A stretch of DNA of 64,000 bases, taken from Escherichia phage Lw1. Positions within the stretch are counted from its first letter, which is position 1. The number at the start of each line of letters is the position of its first letter. A model generated the notes under the pieces. That model did no database searches. It saw only the letters and a program-made list of their open reading frames with translations, and was not told where the DNA came from. Where the stretch lies: the sequence record KC801932. The stretch is one strand, 5' to 3'. The translations under genes were made by a program, and so were the position numbers. Below, piece after piece: positions 17,530 to 59,644 of the stretch.

Positions 17530-17607
17530 GGCCCCTTAGCTCAATTGGTTAGAGCGAACCCCTCATAAGGGTGTGGTTTCCGGTTCAAGTCACGGAAGGG
17601 GCCACCA
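17530..17607 (+). tRNA. tRNA with anticodon CAU (Met or Ile2 type)
   Basis: Hand-folded cloverleaf: 7-bp acceptor stem GGCCCCT/AGGGGCC, D-arm GCTC/GAGC, anticodon loop CTCATAA, T-loop TTCAAGT, encoded CCA; A-G mismatch in anticodon stem and a bulged A in T-stem. Confidence 0.65.
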
Positions 17608-34090: not shown

Positions 34091-34558
34091 TTAGCCGTCA
34101 TAACCGCCACCGCATTTAACATCACCTTCAATGAACAGTTCGCGGTTGTCTCTCAAAAGATTGTATTTCTTTTCGAGTTCCGGCCCGAATGCGTCAGCGT
34201 CTTCATAATAGCTATAATTATAACAACCGCATTCATCATCCCATTCAGGATCATCACCGCATTCGTTGAAATGTACCACTTTGATATCATCAACGCCCAG
34301 TTCTTTCATTTTATTCCAGATATACCGGATGTCAACGCTATGATAACTGAATGCTTCAAGGGTGATACTATCACCATCAATTTGAGGAATACCCCATTTA
34401 GAACGTTGGTCATCGGTAATGATATCCAGTAAAGATTCTACGTTTTCATGTCCGTAAATCTTCGCGACCTCTTCCTCTTTACCAGGACGAACAAGCCCGA
34501 TCCCGATAATAAAGCTACTGCTTGAACTGTTACTTACAAAACCAGAACGGATCTTCAT
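34091..34558 (-). CDS. Hypothetical protein, MKIRSGFVSNSSSSSF family member A (155 aa)
   Basis: N-terminal 17 aa identical to ORF 37968-38480; C-terminus Cys/acidic (ECGDDPEWDDECGC). Confidence 0.5.
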   Translation of the reverse strand: MKIRSGFVSNSSSSSFIIGIGLVRPGKEEEVAKIYGHENVESLLDIITDDQRSKWGIPQIDGDSITLEAFSYHSVDIRYIWNKMKELGVDDIKVVHFNECGDDPEWDDECGCYNYSYYEDADAFGPELEKKYNLLRDNRELFIEGDVKCGGGYDG

Positions 34559-35400: not shown

Positions 35401-37620
35401 TTACAGTTTAACTTCTTTTTCTTCCAGAACGATTTCGCAATCGAATGTTGCATCTTTCCAGAACTCATGCGGGATGATTTTGTCTGCTTTAACCGATACT
35501 TTGGTTTCTTCAAAATCCAGATCCGCAAACCAGGCGTGGCCTACAACGATACCGTACATTACACGGCTCAGGCGCTTGTTCAGTGCGCGTACTTCGTTGA
35601 TGGTTGCCTTTGTTTCTTTATCAAGGTACTCGATTACCTTATCCTTGTCAAGCGCTGCGAGTTCAGCTTTAACAGCATCGTAAGCCCACAGGATGATCAG
35701 GTCGCCGTTGTTCAGTTTCTTCTTACCTTCGGCACGTTTCGCAACAGTTGCCGCTACAGCAGGAAGGGAGGAAACACCCTTGATTTTCAGATTCAGTTCT
35801 TTCGACATATAAACATCAGTCGAATCGGTACGGGTTACTTTCGGGGAGAATCCATAATCACGAATACCCTGTTCAGATAACCATTCACCAGCGGCTTCAC
35901 CGTATTTCTGTTTCAGACCTTCGGCATTACGTAAACCGATCGCGTCGTCACGGAAGAACTTCATCACCTTCTGACGACCTTTCAGGATTTCCAGACGGAT
36001 AGAGTCGTTTACATACTCTTTACCGGAGATCCCGCGAGTCATCGCACGGTTAACCAGAGGCAGACTTGTAAAGTCAACCAGTACCGACATGCGGTCTTCA
36101 CCGATTTTTGCCAGCGGCTTGATAGTCAAACCAGAAGCGCGAAGGTTTTTCAGTGTCGGAATATCGGTTTCCAGTGGCAGAACCTTAACGTTTACGATCC
36201 CATCTTTAACGATGGTGAAGTTACGCACCTGCTTAGTTTCGATTTTTTCCGGCAGTCCCAGTTCTTTCTGTTTGCTTTCTGGGATAGTTACGTAACCTTG
36301 CAGATCCGTGTTAATGGAAATGTTAGGACGTGAACTGTTGCCGACCAGATGTTTAACCGATACTTTGGTTGTTGTCTGGGTAAATTTCGGTGTCCATATT
36401 TCGTGCGTTACCATTTGTGCGGCTAATGCTTTGCGTTCTTCCGGTGTTTTCGCATTTGCGATCTGTTCTGACAGTTGATCCAGAGTATCATCTTCTTTCT
36501 GTACTGTCTGACGGCCTGTACGGTTGTACGCCCAGTGTTCAGAAGACAGGTCGATCACTGTGTCAGTTTCTGCCAGCAGTTCGAGAGCATCAACCAGAGT
36601 GAATGCGTTTTCGTCTGGAACCATGTTGTAATCAACACCTTCAATCAGACGTTTACCCGCATCAACTACCGCTTCCGCGATCAGGTCTTTGGCGTTGGAA
36701 TAATCCTGCTTAGTAAAGCAGTTATCGTAAGCCTTAATCAGACGAACGTCACCGACTTTTTTCAGCACTTTCCATGCCAGATCAGGGTTCATGGTATGAA
36801 GTGCATGATACAGAACCACGTACAGAACCTGTTCACCTTCCATCGTAGCCGGATCAAATCCGTCGATATCGTTGATTGCGTTTTCACCCAGCGCCCAGAT
36901 GTTTTTGATGTGTTCTGGAACCAGTACAACACCATTTGCAGCGTTCAGGACATACACGCGCCCTTCGTCCAGATAGATCGCATGGGTAGCGTCACCGACC
37001 TTGACTTCAACACGCGGTGATGTTTGCGCGGTGATGATTTCAGCAAATGCTGGCTCGTATGCGTCGAAACCTTCAACGAATTTATGCAATGCGTTGGTTG
37101 CTTCTGCCATTTTTTCCAGCAGCGGACGGTTTACATAATAACCGTATTCCAAGAACGCGATGCTGTTAAAAGTCAGCGGGAGAACCGCACACGCTTTCAG
37201 GATGTCATCGGTACGCCAGCAGTTATCATAACCATCCGTAAGGAAGATCAGGCTGTTCAGATTGCCGTTTTCGGATTGCAGATCAGTTGCGATTTCCGCA
37301 GCCAGGTTCAGAGGTTCAACGAAACCAGTACAACCAGTGGGTTTCAGATAGCGGTCGATCGCGGTGCAGATGTTAGTCAGATCGGATACGTTGCTAACCT
37401 TCTCACCACGGAACACAGTACCGTAATCGCCTTTGCTGGAGAAGTACAGAATCGAAACTGTATCATCCTGTTTAACCAGACTCGCCAGGTTTGCTTTCAG
37501 ATGTTTACGGATTTTCGGGAGTTCGTTATACATAGAACCGGAAACGTCACACACGAAAACGTGGTTGGTCGGAGTCGGCTTCGATACTGCGTTTTTGAAT
37601 TCGATATTTGTAATTGACAT
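35401..37620 (-). CDS. von Willebrand factor A (vWA) domain protein, 739 aa
   Basis: N-terminal vWA fold with MIDAS-like DVSGS and later LTDGYD; large uncharacterised C-terminal region. Confidence 0.65.
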   Translation of the reverse strand: MSITNIEFKNAVSKPTPTNHVFVCDVSGSMYNELPKIRKHLKANLASLVKQDDTVSILYFSSKGDYGTVFRGEKVSNVSDLTNICTAIDRYLKPTGCTGFVEPLNLAAEIATDLQSENGNLNSLIFLTDGYDNCWRTDDILKACAVLPLTFNSIAFLEYGYYVNRPLLEKMAEATNALHKFVEGFDAYEPAFAEIITAQTSPRVEVKVGDATHAIYLDEGRVYVLNAANGVVLVPEHIKNIWALGENAINDIDGFDPATMEGEQVLYVVLYHALHTMNPDLAWKVLKKVGDVRLIKAYDNCFTKQDYSNAKDLIAEAVVDAGKRLIEGVDYNMVPDENAFTLVDALELLAETDTVIDLSSEHWAYNRTGRQTVQKEDDTLDQLSEQIANAKTPEERKALAAQMVTHEIWTPKFTQTTTKVSVKHLVGNSSRPNISINTDLQGYVTIPESKQKELGLPEKIETKQVRNFTIVKDGIVNVKVLPLETDIPTLKNLRASGLTIKPLAKIGEDRMSVLVDFTSLPLVNRAMTRGISGKEYVNDSIRLEILKGRQKVMKFFRDDAIGLRNAEGLKQKYGEAAGEWLSEQGIRDYGFSPKVTRTDSTDVYMSKELNLKIKGVSSLPAVAATVAKRAEGKKKLNNGDLIILWAYDAVKAELAALDKDKVIEYLDKETKATINEVRALNKRLSRVMYGIVVGHAWFADLDFEETKVSVKADKIIPHEFWKDATFDCEIVLEEKEVKL

Positions 37621-37629
37621 TTAAATTTC

Positions 37630-37968
37630 TCAGTATTTGGTTGTTTTATGTGCGTTTAAAATGCTTTGGATTTTTTCGGAAATCGTTTGCTGGTCTGGTT
37701 CACATCCCAACTTACCGCCAATCACCTTATAAAAATCTTCAACAGAGCTTACGTTAAAATCCGACATATCGAAACCTAAAGAATACATATGTGGATTTGT
37801 AAATTTGTAAACACCTACATCATACTCGTTAAGGTCGAAACGTTCAAGATATTTCTTCAAAGAGAATAAATCGAACGGTAGCGGAAGATGTTGTTCAATC
37901 GATACAGGTTCCCCCAGCTTATGCGCTTTTAGCGTTGCCGCTTTCGTGTACGTCATTTCTTCTTTCAT
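37630..37968 (-). CDS. Hypothetical protein (112 aa)
   Basis: ORF immediately upstream of vWA gene. Confidence 0.4.
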   Translation of the reverse strand: MKEEMTYTKAATLKAHKLGEPVSIEQHLPLPFDLFSLKKYLERFDLNEYDVGVYKFTNPHMYSLGFDMSDFNVSSVEDFYKVIGGKLGCEPDQQTISEKIQSILNAHKTTKY

Positions 37969-38480
37969 CAGTGGTGACTCTTTGATGTATGTTCAAGGTT
38001 ACGGAAGATGTCGCCGTGTTCCATTTGTGTTCCAACAGGTCCGCATTCATCCGAGTAAGTAAACTCGTAGATAAACACACCGTTCTGATTACCGTACTTC
38101 ATGTTGTACTCTTCATACAACCACATCTTGATCAGAGCGTCTTTCTCTTCGGTTTCTAAATCGTACCAATCCCGACCATCATATGCAAGCGCAATTTGAG
38201 GATTTGAACGATAACGGGTTTCCGCGCTATCTTCGGTTTCCCAATCATAACGCTTATCGTCATAAAACGATTCAAAGCTGTTACCCATATGACCGCCCAA
38301 ATCACGGTGTACATGGTTGATCACTTCTTCGGATGTCAGCGACGGGGTATAGTAACCGCACGTAGGATGACAGTCACCCATCATTTCGCGCAGGTTGTCG
38401 ATATTAGTCGGATCTTTCGGGAACCGGACAATGAAACTACTTGATGAGCTATTGCTCACAAAACCAGAACGGATTTTCAT
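37968..38480 (-). CDS. Hypothetical protein, MKIRSGFVSNSSSSSF family member B (170 aa)
   Basis: Same N-terminus as ORF 34091-34558 with divergent C-terminus. Confidence 0.5.
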   Translation of the reverse strand: MKIRSGFVSNSSSSSFIVRFPKDPTNIDNLREMMGDCHPTCGYYTPSLTSEEVINHVHRDLGGHMGNSFESFYDDKRYDWETEDSAETRYRSNPQIALAYDGRDWYDLETEEKDALIKMWLYEEYNMKYGNQNGVFIYEFTYSDECGPVGTQMEHGDIFRNLEHTSKSHH

Positions 38481-55476: not shown

Positions 55477-55740
55477 TTAAAGTTCACAGCAACGGCACAC
55501 ACCGTAATTGCTGAAAGGTTCTTCGCCGCTCAAATAAGCCCAGAAGTCGCAAGCCTGTTCAGCGGTTTCGAAGATTGCAGCCTCGTAGAAACCACGTTCT
55601 TCATTACCTGCTTCGTTGATATAAACCGGAGTCCAGAGGCTCGGTTTGAAGCAGTCAGAAACAACTACCCAACCATCTTTCGCTTTCATTGCTTCTTTAT
55701 TCGCTTCAACCATTTCCAGAATTTCGTTCAGTAAGCTCAT
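55477..55740 (-). CDS. Hypothetical protein (87 aa)
   Basis: ORF. Confidence 0.35.
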   Translation of the reverse strand: MSLLNEILEMVEANKEAMKAKDGWVVVSDCFKPSLWTPVYINEAGNEERGFYEAAIFETAEQACDFWAYLSGEEPFSNYGVCRCCEL

Positions 55741-55811
55741 TTTGAATCCCCTTTAATCCGTTTCGTTGTCTACGAGAGAGATATTATCATACTGGGGATT
55801 CATGTCAACAC

Positions 55812-56075
55812 TTATTCGAAACGAATCGTGCTATTTTTGAAAAACATTCCAGAGCACACAGCACCAGCGATCGGTTTACCGTTTACGCCCGTAGCCGTAA
55901 ATCCGGTTGCGTATGTATCCTTTTCAGAACAGGAAAACCAGCTATATCCTGTGAACTGAATATTCGAATACCCTTGCGCTTCCAGGATACGCTGTGCTTC
56001 TCGTTCGTCGGTACAGCTTGATTGCAATAGAACGAGAACCACAACCAGTAAGACACATCCAATAACTTTAAACAT
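55812..56075 (-). CDS. Hypothetical lipoprotein-like small protein
   Basis: Signal peptide ending LLQSSC (lipobox-like). Confidence 0.35.
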   Translation of the reverse strand: MFKVIGCVLLVVVLVLLQSSCTDEREAQRILEAQGYSNIQFTGYSWFSCSEKDTYATGFTATGVNGKPIAGAVCSGMFFKNSTIRFE

Positions 56076-56077
56076 AA

Positions 56078-56554
56078 TTACACTCTTTTTAAGTTGGTTT
56101 TACCTGCTTGAACCCAGCTAACACCTAAAGAACCACAACGGAAACCGCTGATAGCACCGAGACATACAGTTGTATGACTGAAAGTGTTAGGTAAATCGAC
56201 CTGGTTATCAGGAGAGATACCCAAATCATGTACGCTTACATCAGTTGCATACAGATAACCACCAGACACATACAGGGAATTGATCGAACCGAACGCGTCA
56301 TTAGGCCATTTAAAACGGTATTTGTCGCCCCATAGCTCAACTTCATACACCTGATATTCATCGAACAGAGGATCGTTACCCTTCGTTGCTGTATAAAGAG
56401 CACTACGCCATTCATACAGCTTTGCTTCAATGTCACTGACATTGATTTCTTTGCCAGCGCTTAAATCATCAAGCACTTGCTCAAGTTCGCGGATTGCTCC
56501 GCTTAATTCACAAGAAAGATTCATACAATACCCTCTTCTTTGAGCACTTCCCAA
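56078..56554 (-). CDS. Hypothetical protein (158 aa)
   Basis: ORF. Confidence 0.35.
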   Translation of the reverse strand: MGSAQRRGYCMNLSCELSGAIRELEQVLDDLSAGKEINVSDIEAKLYEWRSALYTATKGNDPLFDEYQVYEVELWGDKYRFKWPNDAFGSINSLYVSGGYLYATDVSVHDLGISPDNQVDLPNTFSHTTVCLGAISGFRCGSLGVSWVQAGKTNLKRV

Positions 56555-56880
56555 ATAAGTTTATCCAGGTGCATTAGGTTCCACATAACAGAGTCATACG
56601 AACCCAGCGAGCGGGAGTAAATTACACCCCATGAACGATATGCTTTTTGAAACTCTTCCGCGCTGTTTGTATCGCACGGCATATCATCACCAGAAGCGAT
56701 CAGCAGTTTAAACACCATCAGGCTGTTGAGCAGTTTTGAACTTGCGTCCTGTTCTCTCAGCTTAGACCAATACCGTTCGATAATCGCTTTTGCTTTCGGT
56801 TCAGTAATACGCCCATTACTACAACGTTCACGATACACATACATCAGTTCATCGAGTATTTCTGTCATAACACACCCCAT
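56521..56880 (-). CDS. Hypothetical protein (119 aa)
   Basis: ORF. Confidence 0.35.
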   Translation of the reverse strand: MGCVMTEILDELMYVYRERCSNGRITEPKAKAIIERYWSKLREQDASSKLLNSLMVFKLLIASGDDMPCDTNSAEEFQKAYRSWGVIYSRSLGSYDSVMWNLMHLDKLIWEVLKEEGIV

Positions 56881-57191
56881 TTACTTTTGATTCTGTTGCA
56901 TTCTTCCGCACACTCTTTTTCCGCAAGGATTTTGCGAACAACCGCGTTTCTGATTTTCCAGAGATAATCGATCATCTGCATATCTTCGGGAGTGTGATAA
57001 CCTTTCATATCGCATTCAAATACGATAGCATCGCGTTCTGACATTGCCATTATCGCGGTAGCCGAACAAATGGTCATCCCACTATATTTTTCAATCAACG
57101 ATTCCAGTGTACGCTTTTCTGCCGGAATGTCAACAGTTATCGGAACAGGACGGATTCTTGTAGTCGAATCGTCGAAGGATTGATAAATCAT
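56865..57191 (-). CDS. Hypothetical protein (108 aa)
   Basis: ORF directly downstream of radical-SAM-like gene. Confidence 0.35.
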   Translation of the reverse strand: MIYQSFDDSTTRIRPVPITVDIPAEKRTLESLIEKYSGMTICSATAIMAMSERDAIVFECDMKGYHTPEDMQMIDYLWKIRNAVVRKILAEKECAEECNRIKSKWGVL

Positions 57192-58342
57192 TTTAACTCC
57201 ACTGCATAAACATCGGTTTCGGGGGCTTTGTGTACGCGCATATCTTTACCACATACCGCATAAGCCGGACAGTTGCGACAACCGTTATGATCCGTGTTGC
57301 CTGTCAGTTCTTTACGGAACTGTTTTGTTTTCGGGTGTTCCCAGATATCTTTGATAAAATCATCGGCTTCAAGGACATTCAAACCTTCACCCCAGCCACC
57401 TTCAACCCAACGTTCGGTAAACGAGCAAGGGAAGAATTCGCCTTTTTCGTTGATGTAAGAGCTAAACATCGTCGCTTCACAATCTTCCGCATACTGCTTG
57501 TATTGTTCGAAGTTCGGGTGTCCCTCCATCGCTTCAACGAAAGCTGGGGCTGAACAGCTATCGAATCCAAATCCTACACCAGAATCAAGGCAGTATTCAA
57601 CAAGTTTTTTGTATTGTTCGCGGGTGACTGTATCCCAGTTCTTACCACGTCCCTTTTGTTTCAGACCCAGGAACACGATCGCGTTGACTTGTTTCAGGCG
57701 CGGATCATTACGCACAGCATCAACAACGGTAAACGCATCATCATAGGTCTTTGAGCTAACCATGAAATGTAGGTTGATTTGCTGTTGTCCTGCTTCTGCC
57801 AGGTTTGCGACGGAATCGAAAGCAACATCGAAGCCAGCATGTTTATAAACCGATACTGCAACAGCCCCAGCAACCGCCGCTAAACGCGCTGCAACGTCTT
57901 TTGATACATCAGCAATGGTAAGGTTCGGTACAATGCCTTTAGAACGCGCATAGGCCATCATATCGAACATATCAGGGTTTGTTTGTCCCTGTGCATCAGC
58001 ACCGAGTGCGCATTGGGTTAACCAGGGCATTTTATCAATGATGGATTTGAAAGAAGCAAGATCCATATTGTAGCCGTTCGGGTTATTGGACTTGTAACAG
58101 AAACCACACAGCTTACCAGCGGGGCCATTACATTTAGTTGTGATCTCGATATCGAGGATAAAAGGAAAATGACTATAAATAGGATCGTCAGCAGGAGTTT
58201 TGCCCCAAGTCATCATATGACCTGTTTTCATATCAAAATTAAAATTAACCTCTTCGGAACGATAGATTTTCTTTCCTTTCGCTTCCAGTAGAAGTCCAAC
58301 AGGCGTTTTGATATGTTTGGCGTTTACTTTAACGTGTCTCAT
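57188..58342 (-). CDS. Radical-SAM-like Fe-S enzyme (approx 384 aa), non-canonical Cys spacing
   Basis: TTKCNGPAGKLCGFCY (Cx7Cx2C) near N-terminus, further Cys cluster CRNCPAYAVC near C-terminus; start at ATG 58342 with AGGT RBS. Confidence 0.45.
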   Translation of the reverse strand: MRHVKVNAKHIKTPVGLLLEAKGKKIYRSEEVNFNFDMKTGHMMTWGKTPADDPIYSHFPFILDIEITTKCNGPAGKLCGFCYKSNNPNGYNMDLASFKSIIDKMPWLTQCALGADAQGQTNPDMFDMMAYARSKGIVPNLTIADVSKDVAARLAAVAGAVAVSVYKHAGFDVAFDSVANLAEAGQQQINLHFMVSSKTYDDAFTVVDAVRNDPRLKQVNAIVFLGLKQKGRGKNWDTVTREQYKKLVEYCLDSGVGFGFDSCSAPAFVEAMEGHPNFEQYKQYAEDCEATMFSSYINEKGEFFPCSFTERWVEGGWGEGLNVLEADDFIKDIWEHPKTKQFRKELTGNTDHNGCRNCPAYAVCGKDMRVHKAPETDVYAVELK

Positions 58343-58354
58343 AGGAACCTCATA

Positions 58355-59083
58355 ATGTATTACGTTTACAGAATCACAAATGTTATAGAGAACAAGCACT
58401 ATTATGGATCAAGAAAACCTAAAAAGTCAATGCTTGCTTCCGACGATTTAGGGAAACACTATTTCAGTAGTTCCCGTGATAGTCATTTCATCCAAGATCA
58501 GAAGGAAAATCCAGGACACTACAAATATAAAGTAATCGTATCGGGGTTGTCAAGGGAAAAGGCGATGAAACTTGAGAAAAGGTTACACGAAATCTACAAG
58601 GTGGACACGAACCCACATTTTTATAACAAACACATACACAACAGCGTTGATTTTTCATGTACACCAGAAACAGGAAAGAAGATTTCACAAACACACCAGA
58701 AATATGCAGCAAAGAAAATTTCAGAATCACATAAAAGGCGATTCAAGGAAGGTATAGCATCACATAAAGGAGAGAACAACCCACGATACAACGATCATCG
58801 GTCTTATGAAGAGATACACGGAGAAGAAAAAGCGGAGACTATACGCAAAGCACAATCTGAATCAAGAAGAGGAAAAGGCAATTCCCGCGCGGTTACGTGG
58901 AAATTTACTTCCCCTAATGGAGAAGAATTTTTAGTTGAAGGAGAATGTAAAAAGTTTTGCAAAGACAGAAATATTTCCATGCGTAAACTGAAAACCTATC
59001 TGGGTGAAGTCATCACAACATGCGATAAACCCTACTATATCTCTAAGAATACCGTAGGATGGAAATTAGAAAAGATTATTTGA
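58355..59083 (+). CDS. Free-standing GIY-YIG homing endonuclease (Seg-like)
   Basis: N-terminal YYVYRITNVIENKHYYGSRK GIY-YIG motif from ATG 58355 (AGGAA RBS); basic C-terminal DNA-binding region; sole plus-strand gene in minus-strand island. Confidence 0.7.
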   Translation: MYYVYRITNVIENKHYYGSRKPKKSMLASDDLGKHYFSSSRDSHFIQDQKENPGHYKYKVIVSGLSREKAMKLEKRLHEIYKVDTNPHFYNKHIHNSVDFSCTPETGKKISQTHQKYAAKKISESHKRRFKEGIASHKGENNPRYNDHRSYEEIHGEEKAETIRKAQSESRRGKGNSRAVTWKFTSPNGEEFLVEGECKKFCKDRNISMRKLKTYLGEVITTCDKPYYISKNTVGWKLEKII

Positions 59084-59330
59084 ATCTTCTTTTACGTTCG
59101 TCAGCCAATTCTTGTTTGTACGTTTTAATGTACTTCCCGTTAAGAATTCGAAGTTGCTGGAAAACTTTGTTGCACAAAGCACGTTTCGCTTTGTATTCTG
59201 GTGTATTGCGGATTGATTCGATCGTCATACCCATTTCGTTTTTAGGGTAAGCGCTCAACTCCCTGCCGATCTCTCTGTACCAGTTGCTTAACTGGTCACG
59301 CTTTGCTTTGTACTCTTCAAAAGTTAACAT
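59076..59330 (-). CDS. Hypothetical protein (84 aa)
   Basis: ORF convergent with GIY-YIG gene. Confidence 0.35.
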   Translation of the reverse strand: MLTFEEYKAKRDQLSNWYREIGRELSAYPKNEMGMTIESIRNTPEYKAKRALCNKVFQQLRILNGKYIKTYKQELADERKRRFK

Positions 59331-59644
59331 AACAATCTCCGGTTTAGTTTCTATGTGTGTAAGGTATCATTACCATACACACAAAGCAAGCTATATTTTC
59401 AAAATTAATCGGAATAATACAAAACAGAACACAGCAGAAAACACCCAACATACAACGAAGAACAACGCGATTCTTTTCAAATCATTCAAGGAATCTTCCA
59501 AAATCGGTTGCAACATCTTTCGGATCTGCTTCAAGTTCATACAGTTCACGAGCTAACGAACTTGGTTTGATATCACGCCCTAAATGGGCACTAACGGCAC
59601 TTAACCACTTAATGTAAGGATCGAACTTGCTCATGGTATGCCTT

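Follow-up and report, generated by a model that had tools for sequence, protein, structure and literature searches.

The 64,000-nt stretch of Escherichia phage Lw1 DNA analysed here (sequence record KC801932; hereafter the window) comes from a T4-like phage of the Straboviridae, in the RB16/RB43/Slopekvirus group. It contains a gene for a radical SAM (rSAM)/SPASM-twitch enzyme (57188..58342, minus strand; 384 aa from its ATG) and, on the same strand, two genes for small proteins that begin with a shared peptide, the tag, and that are predicted here to be substrates of the enzyme. Tag protein 1 (37968..38480, minus strand; 170 aa, phrog_7397) starts MKIRSGFVSNSSSSSF, carries a C-terminal EHGDIFRN...SHH motif and is 100% identical to phage Lw1 gp116. 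Tag protein 2 (34091..34558, minus strand; 155 aa) also starts MKIRSGFVSNSSSSSF, has a body unrelated to that of tag protein 1, and ends GGGYDG. On the opposite strand from the rSAM gene lies a homing endonuclease gene (HEG), and three small open reading frames (ORFs) lie at the 3' side of the rSAM gene. The rSAM region shares ~95% identity with RB16 and RB43 and 94% with Klebsiella phage Miro; the mechanical reading frame of the gene reaches further 5', to a GTG at 58399 (403 aa).

Considered on its own, the gene is ordinary: an already annotated rSAM gene with a loop-expanded motif, beside a Seg-like HEG. The preliminary description of the window had thought such an enzyme unusual for this phage group, a view that does not hold, since the gene is present in ~171 sequenced RB43/Slopekvirus-type phages. 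It has been labelled 'putative radical SAM protein' for years in RB16, RB43 and Slopekvirus, with no role found for it in the literature searched. Two records show it in pieces. In the original RB43 record (AY967407) it is split into two ORFs, whereas it is intact in the later RB43 records (HE981739); in Cronobacter phage leB (NC_048645) the match is 1,328 bp long and consists of two pieces annotated as two rSAM proteins. Such splits could stem from a frameshift, from an insertion or from an error in sequencing.

Homology searches and a structural model both place the protein among radical SAM enzymes. SPASM (PF13186; aa 288-359) was the sole Pfam family found, scoring 26.3 bits (gathering score 21.5), and NCBIfam returned weak rSAM, SPASM and twitch matches. 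The window protein has no match to PF04055 at E<=1, whereas orthologs encoded by bacteria match this family at 1e-14 to 1e-15; among 41 diverse orthologs, SPASM is matched by 39 and PF04055 by 22 (best E 1.3e-4). A PDB search with the single sequence gave nothing useful, and one with the family profile matched only the BtrN twitch domain. The AlphaFold2 model built from the alignment of the 41 orthologs (pLDDT 92.7, pTM 0.90) consists of an all-beta N-terminal beta-hairpin domain (strands within aa 9-46, no helices), a core in which beta and alpha elements alternate (aa 62-260), and a C-terminal domain. Its top structural matches are exclusively rSAM-SPASM/twitch structures, the best being SPASM enzymes that modify peptides or proteins, and a search of viral folds in BFVD returned only annotations of the 'radical SAM' type. 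The preliminary description had called the gene radical SAM-like and had made that identity depend on a partial TIM barrel; the partial (beta/alpha)6 core that defines the superfamily is present in the model, and the radical SAM interpretation therefore stands. We are close to certain that the gene encodes a true rSAM enzyme and, judging from sequence and model, assign it to the SPASM/twitch subgroup as an active-type member. Purifying selection on aa 62-384 is strong, with 92% nucleotide but ~98% protein identity to RB16.

The cysteines of the enzyme (positions 71, 79, 82, 111, 251, 263, 288, 306, 355, 358 and 364) form a C71-x7-C79-x2-C82 motif and a C-terminal set, as the preliminary description had reported for this 384-aa ORF. 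Conservation was counted over 193 non-identical orthologs. Because each of seven cysteines, C263, C288, C306 and C358 among them, is retained in 190-193 orthologs (C71, C79 and C82 in 190-192), the pattern is not a matter of chance. In the window the motif reads C71-x7-C79-G-F-C82-Y, and the aromatic residue before the third cysteine and the Y-K that follows are invariant among the orthologs, as are S164, N190 and H192. The first two cysteines are separated by seven residues in 136 orthologs, by the canonical three in 20 (e.g. TTICNNGCPFCYK), by five in two, by six in four, by eight in three and by 9 to 15 in 24; the bacterial orthologs likewise have the canonical Cx3Cx2C. Since a single ortholog family spans spacings from x3 to x15, Cx7Cx2C is, by sequence comparison, a lineage-specific loop expansion of the ordinary rSAM motif, and the suggestion that the odd spacing might mark a different Fe-S protein falls away. 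Expanded loops occur in active rSAM enzymes such as QueE (Cx14Cx2C), which shares with the window enzyme an insertion between the first two cluster cysteines and a retained CxxC with its aromatic residue. Non-canonical spacing within an ortholog family can thus be nothing but loop-length variation.

The C-terminal set is best read against the SPASM motif, Cx9-15Gx4C ... Cx2Cx5Cx3C ... C, in which seven motif cysteines bind two auxiliary clusters. The window enzyme has a truncated version, C288-x12-G301-x4-C306 ... C355-x2-C358-x5-C364, in which the last two motif cysteines are absent; C355 is found in 136 of the 193 orthologs and C364 in 65. Because only C263, C288, C306 and C358 are invariant and the last two SPASM cysteines are missing, a single, twitch-like auxiliary cluster appears most likely. 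C71, C79 and C82 would bind the SAM-cleaving [4Fe-4S] cluster, and the four invariant C-terminal cysteines would bind the auxiliary one.

The tag has the consensus M-K-(I/V/T)-R-x-G-F-V-S-N-S-S-S-S-S-F-(I/V)-(I/V) (as peptides, MKIRSGFVSNSSSSSFII and MKIRSGFVSNSSSSSFIVRF). Its invariant part comprises the 16 N-terminal residues, after which the sequences diverge completely. When the unique local members, 348 in number (19-390 aa, median 131), were grouped by what follows the tag, 132 clusters resulted. With a profile run against 1.84 billion representative proteins, at least 6,504 clusters of tagged proteins were recovered at E<=0.001, and 1,886 with the stricter threshold E<=1e-10. The codons of the tag vary (351 distinct 48-mers among 366 instances), with both TCN and AGY serine codons and both arginine codon families in use at every position where these residues are conserved. 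Selection on the tag therefore acts at the level of the peptide, and this codon variability rules out a conserved DNA or RNA element. The tag proteins have no Pfam family, a search with 150 diverse members giving one marginal zinc-ribbon match; the same 150 matched no PHROGs other than phrog_7397 and, in two partial matches, phrog_132. Tag protein 2 has such a partial match to phrog_132, annotated 'head-tail adaptor'. In the AlphaFold2 model of tag protein 1 (pLDDT 81.9), residues 1-10 form a tail below 50 pLDDT that is followed by a strand at 13-20, with further DSSP strands at 135-143 and 163-169; Foldseek found no PDB match to this fold (best E 0.77). Neither the motif string nor any description of a tag/rSAM pairing was found in the literature searched, which included work on phage rSAM/SPASM proteins and follow-ups on the Avs2-associated proteins Avap1 and Avap2.

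Tag genes also occur on contigs attributed to cellular organisms. Tandem arrays of up to seven tag genes in 8 kb, often with an rSAM gene, lie on many contigs of GTDB metagenome-assembled genomes binned as Nanoarchaeota, Patescibacteria, Omnitrophota, Asgard archaea and others; these look like large phage contigs that were mis-binned. A contig of 178,077 bp in the assembly of Flagellimonas marina CGMCC 1.15774 carries homologues of the two tag genes, their neighbours and a von Willebrand factor A (vWA) protein of the window; it is as long as an RB43-like phage genome and is probably phage contamination of that assembly.

The genomic distribution of the two families ties them together. All ORFs were clustered across 90 loci, including 80 from IMG/VR; most of these 80 lay on contigs of 100-550 kb, and their rSAM orthologs shared 38-96% identity with the query. 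Once the enzyme and antisense artefacts within its gene are set aside, the tag family is the sole gene family conserved beside the rSAM gene. Tag ORFs number 258 in 68 of the 90 loci, all on the rSAM strand, 230 of them downstream and 28 upstream. They are found in 53 of 65 non-redundant loci that are not T4-like, with a median of two and a maximum of 13 per locus, and in this set the first downstream tag gene begins a median of 505 nt past the rSAM stop. In the reverse test, a degenerate DNA pattern for the tag alone was run on IMG/VR and on 185,579 GTDB species genomes. Among the IMG/VR matches listed, the enzyme was encoded in 44 of 119 tag-bearing stretches (1-15 kb), and in 37 of the 77 that had at least 1.5 kb of upstream sequence; in GTDB it lay within 8 kb in 49 of 93. 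Searches for known Pfam domains among the neighbours in four distant phage contigs found none that recurred. Nucleotide or cofactor pathway genes were not conserved near the rSAM gene, either in individual loci or in the 90-locus clustering, and the nucleic-acid or small-molecule role raised in the preliminary description finds no support in a neighbourhood whose conserved members are proteins with an invariant tag.

Among 50,697 phage records, the rSAM gene is present in 171 and tag protein 1 in 173, in the same genera. Klebsiella phage vB_KM5a1-KLB1 (PP444686) is a natural partial double loss, in which only the last 76 codons of the rSAM gene are left and the gene for tag protein 1 lacks ~70 first codons, including the tag. 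Tag variants (T9, T13, T14 or C14) occur only beside enzymes with x3 spacing (37 of 92 tags), and expanded-loop enzymes are accompanied by the strict GFVSNSSSSSF tag in 95 of 97 cases; since this co-variation is confounded by phylogeny, it is only a weak hint.

A bacterial counterpart was found as an operon of overlapping genes at 17 GTDB loci, in Veillonella parvula, Acetatifactor muris DSM 23669, Lachnobacterium bovis DSM 14045, Sulfuricurvum, Verrucomicrobia and others. In order, its genes encode a partner of ~135 aa, a 137-aa tag protein (MKIRNGFVTNSSSTSF) and an rSAM-SPASM enzyme with canonical Cx3Cx2C. The last aligns with the window enzyme over 344 aa at 30% identity (E 7e-30), a match that takes in the N-terminal FDxKTG hairpin; the ~135-aa partner was not found in the phage loci. 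Directly upstream in at least 12 of the 17 loci is an Avs2-like STAND gene with trypsin-protease and NACHT domains, which often has an Avs1a/LmuA-like MBL-fold gene before it. A SIR2-HerA pair follows in Sulfuricurvum, and on Agrobacterium pAt plasmids the triad comes after a SMEK-domain protein, the tag there being MKLKMDFVSNSSSTSF. The linkage between enzyme and tag is thus two-way and strand-consistent, and extends over phages, bacteria and plasmids. PADLOC v2 contains none of the triad proteins; when run on the two tag proteins of the window, one tag protein from bacteria and two of the bacterial partners, it gave no match.

Related arrangements have been described in bacterial immunity. 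The Avs2 operon of K. pneumoniae includes Avap1, a radical SAM protein of unknown role that is required for defence against T2, and Avap2, a small DUF6375-like protein that physically binds KpAvs2 (Béchon et al., 2024; PMC11564622); the bacterial small proteins found here have no PF19902/DUF6375 match. Modification of peptides by rSAM-SPASM enzymes has been predicted in STAND/vWA conflict systems (Kaur et al., 2020; PMC7159879), and in the HXS system rSAM enzymes mature a protein effector in phage defence (PMC13128918). Because the bacterial enzyme-tag pairs sit in Avs2-like STAND and SIR2-HerA operons, the phage module, by analogy, probably acts in conflict between phage and host or between phages.

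We propose that the rSAM enzyme is a maturase for the protein tag, used in phage-host conflict, and that the tag proteins are its substrates, a reading we favour while leaving it considerable room for doubt. The enzyme would post-translationally modify the invariant N-terminal tag of hypervariable small phage proteins. The family-specific beta-hairpin domain would dock the tag, and the 5'-deoxyadenosyl radical would abstract a hydrogen from one of its residues. By analogy with the enzymes closest in structure, the product might be a C-C or ether cross-link within the tag, for instance Phe7-Ser9/Thr9 (the three-residue cyclophane pattern) or Lys2/Arg4-Phe7 (SuiB-type); a tag serine might alternatively be oxidised to formylglycine. 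Our confidence in any specific chemistry is low. On a broader view, which we advance tentatively and hold to be somewhat less than an even chance, one rSAM/SPASM enzyme would covalently modify the 16-residue tag of thousands of unrelated small proteins throughout a widespread phage system, providing a common 'activation' or 'addressing' chemistry for an arsenal of effectors and mirroring, perhaps countering or mimicking, the module of the bacterial immune operons.

Several observations weigh against a maturase acting on the tag. Twelve of the 65 non-redundant loci have no tag gene within 7 kb, and in the window the rSAM gene and the two tag genes, although on the same strand, are 19-23 kb apart. 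Co-occurrence among isolates is not independent evidence because it comes from a single clade, and KLB1 is one genome, in which the 155-aa tag protein 2 remains whole. Common regulation, or membership of one pathway, could also bring the genes together without any relation of enzyme and substrate. The enzyme has no recognisable RRE (leader-binding) domain, its N-terminal domain being all-beta. The GGE motif that binds SAM appears from the alignment to read G-A-D in the window enzyme, where G114-A-D116 aligns with GGG of the bacterial ortholog. Finally, an invariant basic motif after strand 6, L225-K228-x-K230-x-R232-G233 (LKxKGRG), could bind a phosphorylated small molecule. Together with the loci that have no tag gene nearby and the distances in the window, this last motif leaves room for a phosphorylated small molecule as substrate. 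On a rival reading the enzyme would act on a small molecule, a nucleotide or a nucleic acid, as in DNA or tRNA modification or the production of an antiviral or anti-defence nucleotide analogue, with the tag proteins as mere neighbouring early genes. We consider this unlikely: the best structural matches are to enzymes that modify peptides or proteins, the 90-locus clustering brought out no conserved genes of nucleotide or cofactor pathways, the linkage with the tag is two-way and same-strand, and in bacteria the tag and rSAM genes overlap within an operon. For Avap1, at most a candidate relative of the window family, neither pVip-type nucleotides nor an NTP pocket was found (PMC11564622).

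The tag could also be a docking or targeting signal rather than a substrate, recruiting cargo to a common partner (the rSAM enzyme as a hub, a virion or injection route, or a STAND sensor), with the catalytic target of the enzyme elsewhere. Many unrelated bodies under one invariant N-terminal peptide do resemble known N-terminal targeting sequences, an example being the capsid-targeting sequence of the T4 internal proteins. The partial 'head-tail adaptor' match of tag protein 2 and the physical binding of KpAvs2 by Avap2 (PMC11564622) point the same way. Such a signal would, however, leave unexplained why the one gene to accompany the tag across phages, bacteria and plasmids encodes an rSAM-SPASM enzyme that looks catalytically intact, all its cluster cysteines being invariant; the tag also carries no cleavage motif of the T4 prohead-protease type, and we rate this alternative as rather unlikely. 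Far less probable, in our judgement hardly credible, is a non-catalytic or degenerate Fe-S protein. The family contains canonical Cx3Cx2C orthologs, the aromatic residue before the third cysteine and the Y-K after it are invariant, purifying selection relative to RB16 is strong, and loop-expanded enzymes such as QueE are active. In favour of this reading are the Cx7Cx2C spacing, the missing direct match of the window protein to PF04055 and the G-A-D in place of GGE.

The HEG beside the rSAM gene (58355..59083, plus strand; 242 aa from its ATG) is, to judge from its homologs, a free-standing, Seg-like GIY-YIG gene, and its product matches phrog_314, 'homing endonuclease' (E 2.4e-24). The two divergent ATGs are separated by a 12-nt spacer (58343..58354; AGGAACCTCATA) that contains both Shine-Dalgarno-like sequences, in agreement with the gap originally noted between the two starts. 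The HEG protein itself stays below threshold in Pfam and NCBIfam, and neither single-sequence nor profile searches of the PDB gave a match. It has the motif YVYRITN-x7-HYYGS, and E74 and N86 are invariant in a five-member alignment. Among the five aligned homologs, two match GIY-YIG (3.3e-8), three SegE_GIY-YIG, two NUMOD3 and one the I-TevI DNA-binding domain; homologs in other phages sit between conserved structural genes. The gene is found in ~18 of ~172 related genomes. Every HEG-minus genome loses DNA similarity to the window exactly from 58159/58160 (rSAM codon 61) to 59091, and RB16 has a 68-aa ORF in place of the HEG. The first 61 rSAM codons (58160..58342, minus strand) thus form a divergent, HEG-linked allele, with ~30% amino acid identity to RB16 as against ~98% for aa 62-384. 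This window-type N-terminus occurs in 17 genomes, largely the HEG-plus genomes listed. Two genomes with decaying HEGs both keep the linked 5' allele: IMGVR_UViG_3300045988_041714 has an internal deletion of ~450 bp, and KLB21 (PP597383) retains only the first 32 codons. In Vibrio phage D479, the 3' end of a 57%-identical rSAM ortholog is flanked by a HEG of 45% identity.

A sporadic distribution, sharp breaks in homology and a linked, diverged flanking allele are the behaviour of a homing endonuclease, as far as sequence comparison can tell. The pattern fits homing beside the rSAM gene, as the preliminary description had supposed and as the relative flanking the D479 ortholog bears out, with cleavage probably falling within the conserved rSAM gene. 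The HEG cassette would then include the first 183 nt of that gene as a diverged and presumably cleavage-resistant allele. Like the free-standing Seg-type GIY-YIG HEGs of T4 and I-TevI, the window HEG lies between conserved genes, is sporadic and has a diverged flank on the target side; unlike those families, its own product reaches no Pfam, NCBIfam or PDB threshold, although its homologs carry GIY-YIG, NUMOD3 and I-TevI domains. Over 55500-59400 the window is a mosaic, being 99.5% identical to RB16 at 55500-57191 and 92% at 57186-58159, while 57188-59398 aligns contiguously with Slopekvirus Miro at 94% identity. On the rSAM strand, the best sigma-70-like matches (58401-58553, minus strand) fall within the HEG coding sequence, TTGACA-18-TATATT (11/12) and TTGACT-18-CATAAT, and those for the HEG strand (58217-58356, plus strand) are weaker and lie within the rSAM 5' end; overall, such matches are no more numerous than the shuffled expectation.

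The three small ORFs on the 3' side of the rSAM gene (56078..57191, minus strand; 108 aa, phrog_7705; 119 aa, DUF7238; 158 aa, phrog_7538) are present, co-directional and overlapping, as first described. They are co-transcribed and, because they overlap the rSAM stop and one another, probably also co-translated. Each clusters only with 11 T4-like (RB43/Slopekvirus) loci among the 90, with no wider conservation beside the rSAM gene, and we therefore set aside the earlier idea that they are partners or substrates: as conserved partners of the enzyme they are ruled out by their restriction to this clade. The 119-aa ORF (56521-56880, minus strand) is a clear member of DUF7238/phrog_1451 (E 1.5e-50), a PHROG larger than those of its neighbours, and has no rSAM link outside the clade. 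A weak PFL-like match (E 0.0018) made it a candidate glycyl-radical link; the 38 matched residues fall midway along the PFL profile and not at its glycyl-radical end, and the candidate was dropped. In RB16 (RB16p155), RB43 and Miro, an extra ORF of ~99 aa lies directly 3' of the rSAM stop; it is absent from the window, where the junction coincides exactly with the stop codon.

Between the two tag genes lies a gene for a 739-aa protein with an N-terminal vWA domain (35401-37620, minus strand; MIDAS-like DVSGS; phrog_2426), which is conserved only in the T4-like clade. Proteins with vWA domains feature in conflict systems (PMC7159879), to which the window protein has no established link. It and the other genes between the two tag genes were considered as members of the system and ruled out, since they are confined to T4-like loci. 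The sole tRNA gene in the window, identified with ARAGORN, is a tRNA-Met (CAT) at 17530-17607 (plus strand).

The pairing of this rSAM family with a large family of tagged proteins is apparently undescribed. The candidate substrates make the function of a long-annotated gene directly testable, by means of two small proteins of an E. coli/Klebsiella phage that can be cultivated. If the proposal is true, a new protein modification could emerge, a sizeable group of viral 'dark matter' genes would be accounted for by a chemistry that phage and bacterium both use in their conflict, and the result would bear on the role of the rSAM protein in the experimentally studied Avs2 operon.

Compared with known rSAM systems, the enzyme may work like a maturase, though not as part of a classical RiPP (a ribosomally made peptide that is post-translationally modified) system, for its locus has neither an RRE nor an adjacent short precursor peptide. 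SuiB/StrB (the streptide Lys-Trp cyclase), SkfB, PqqE and CteB have an RRE/winged-helix domain where the window family has its beta-hairpin N-domain. The window enzyme further differs from SuiB-type maturases in having one set of four invariant auxiliary cysteines, and whereas a SuiB-type enzyme serves one short precursor peptide, the candidate substrates here are folded tagged proteins of 90-390 aa, in up to 13 copies and with unrelated bodies. Nor does the family fit the definition of anaerobic sulfatase-maturating enzymes: no sulfatase gene was found at the rSAM loci, the tag contains no (C/S)xPxR and only four auxiliary cysteines are invariant. From anSME/AtsB and BtrN, radical SAM dehydrogenases with SPASM and twitch domains, it is set apart by the tag without a sulfatase motif and by a truncated SPASM in which C355 and C364 are not conserved. 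The KpAvs2 operon (PMC11564622), like the bacterial operons found here, combines an Avs2 STAND sensor with an rSAM protein of unknown role and a small protein; its STAND protein has an Mrr N-domain, whereas those found here have a trypsin-like N-domain and are accompanied by two small proteins, a comparison made by description and not by Avap sequence. A precedent for the proposed maturation of a protein is the HXS system (PMC13128918), likewise compared by description, in which rSAM enzymes mature a protein rather than a short peptide, carrying a short Ser-containing motif, in phage-bacterium conflict. It differs in its His-Xaa-Ser repeats (HxsA), its bacterial and periplasmic setting, and its use of two rSAM enzymes (HxsB/HxsC) on one substrate, where the window system would apply one enzyme to many.

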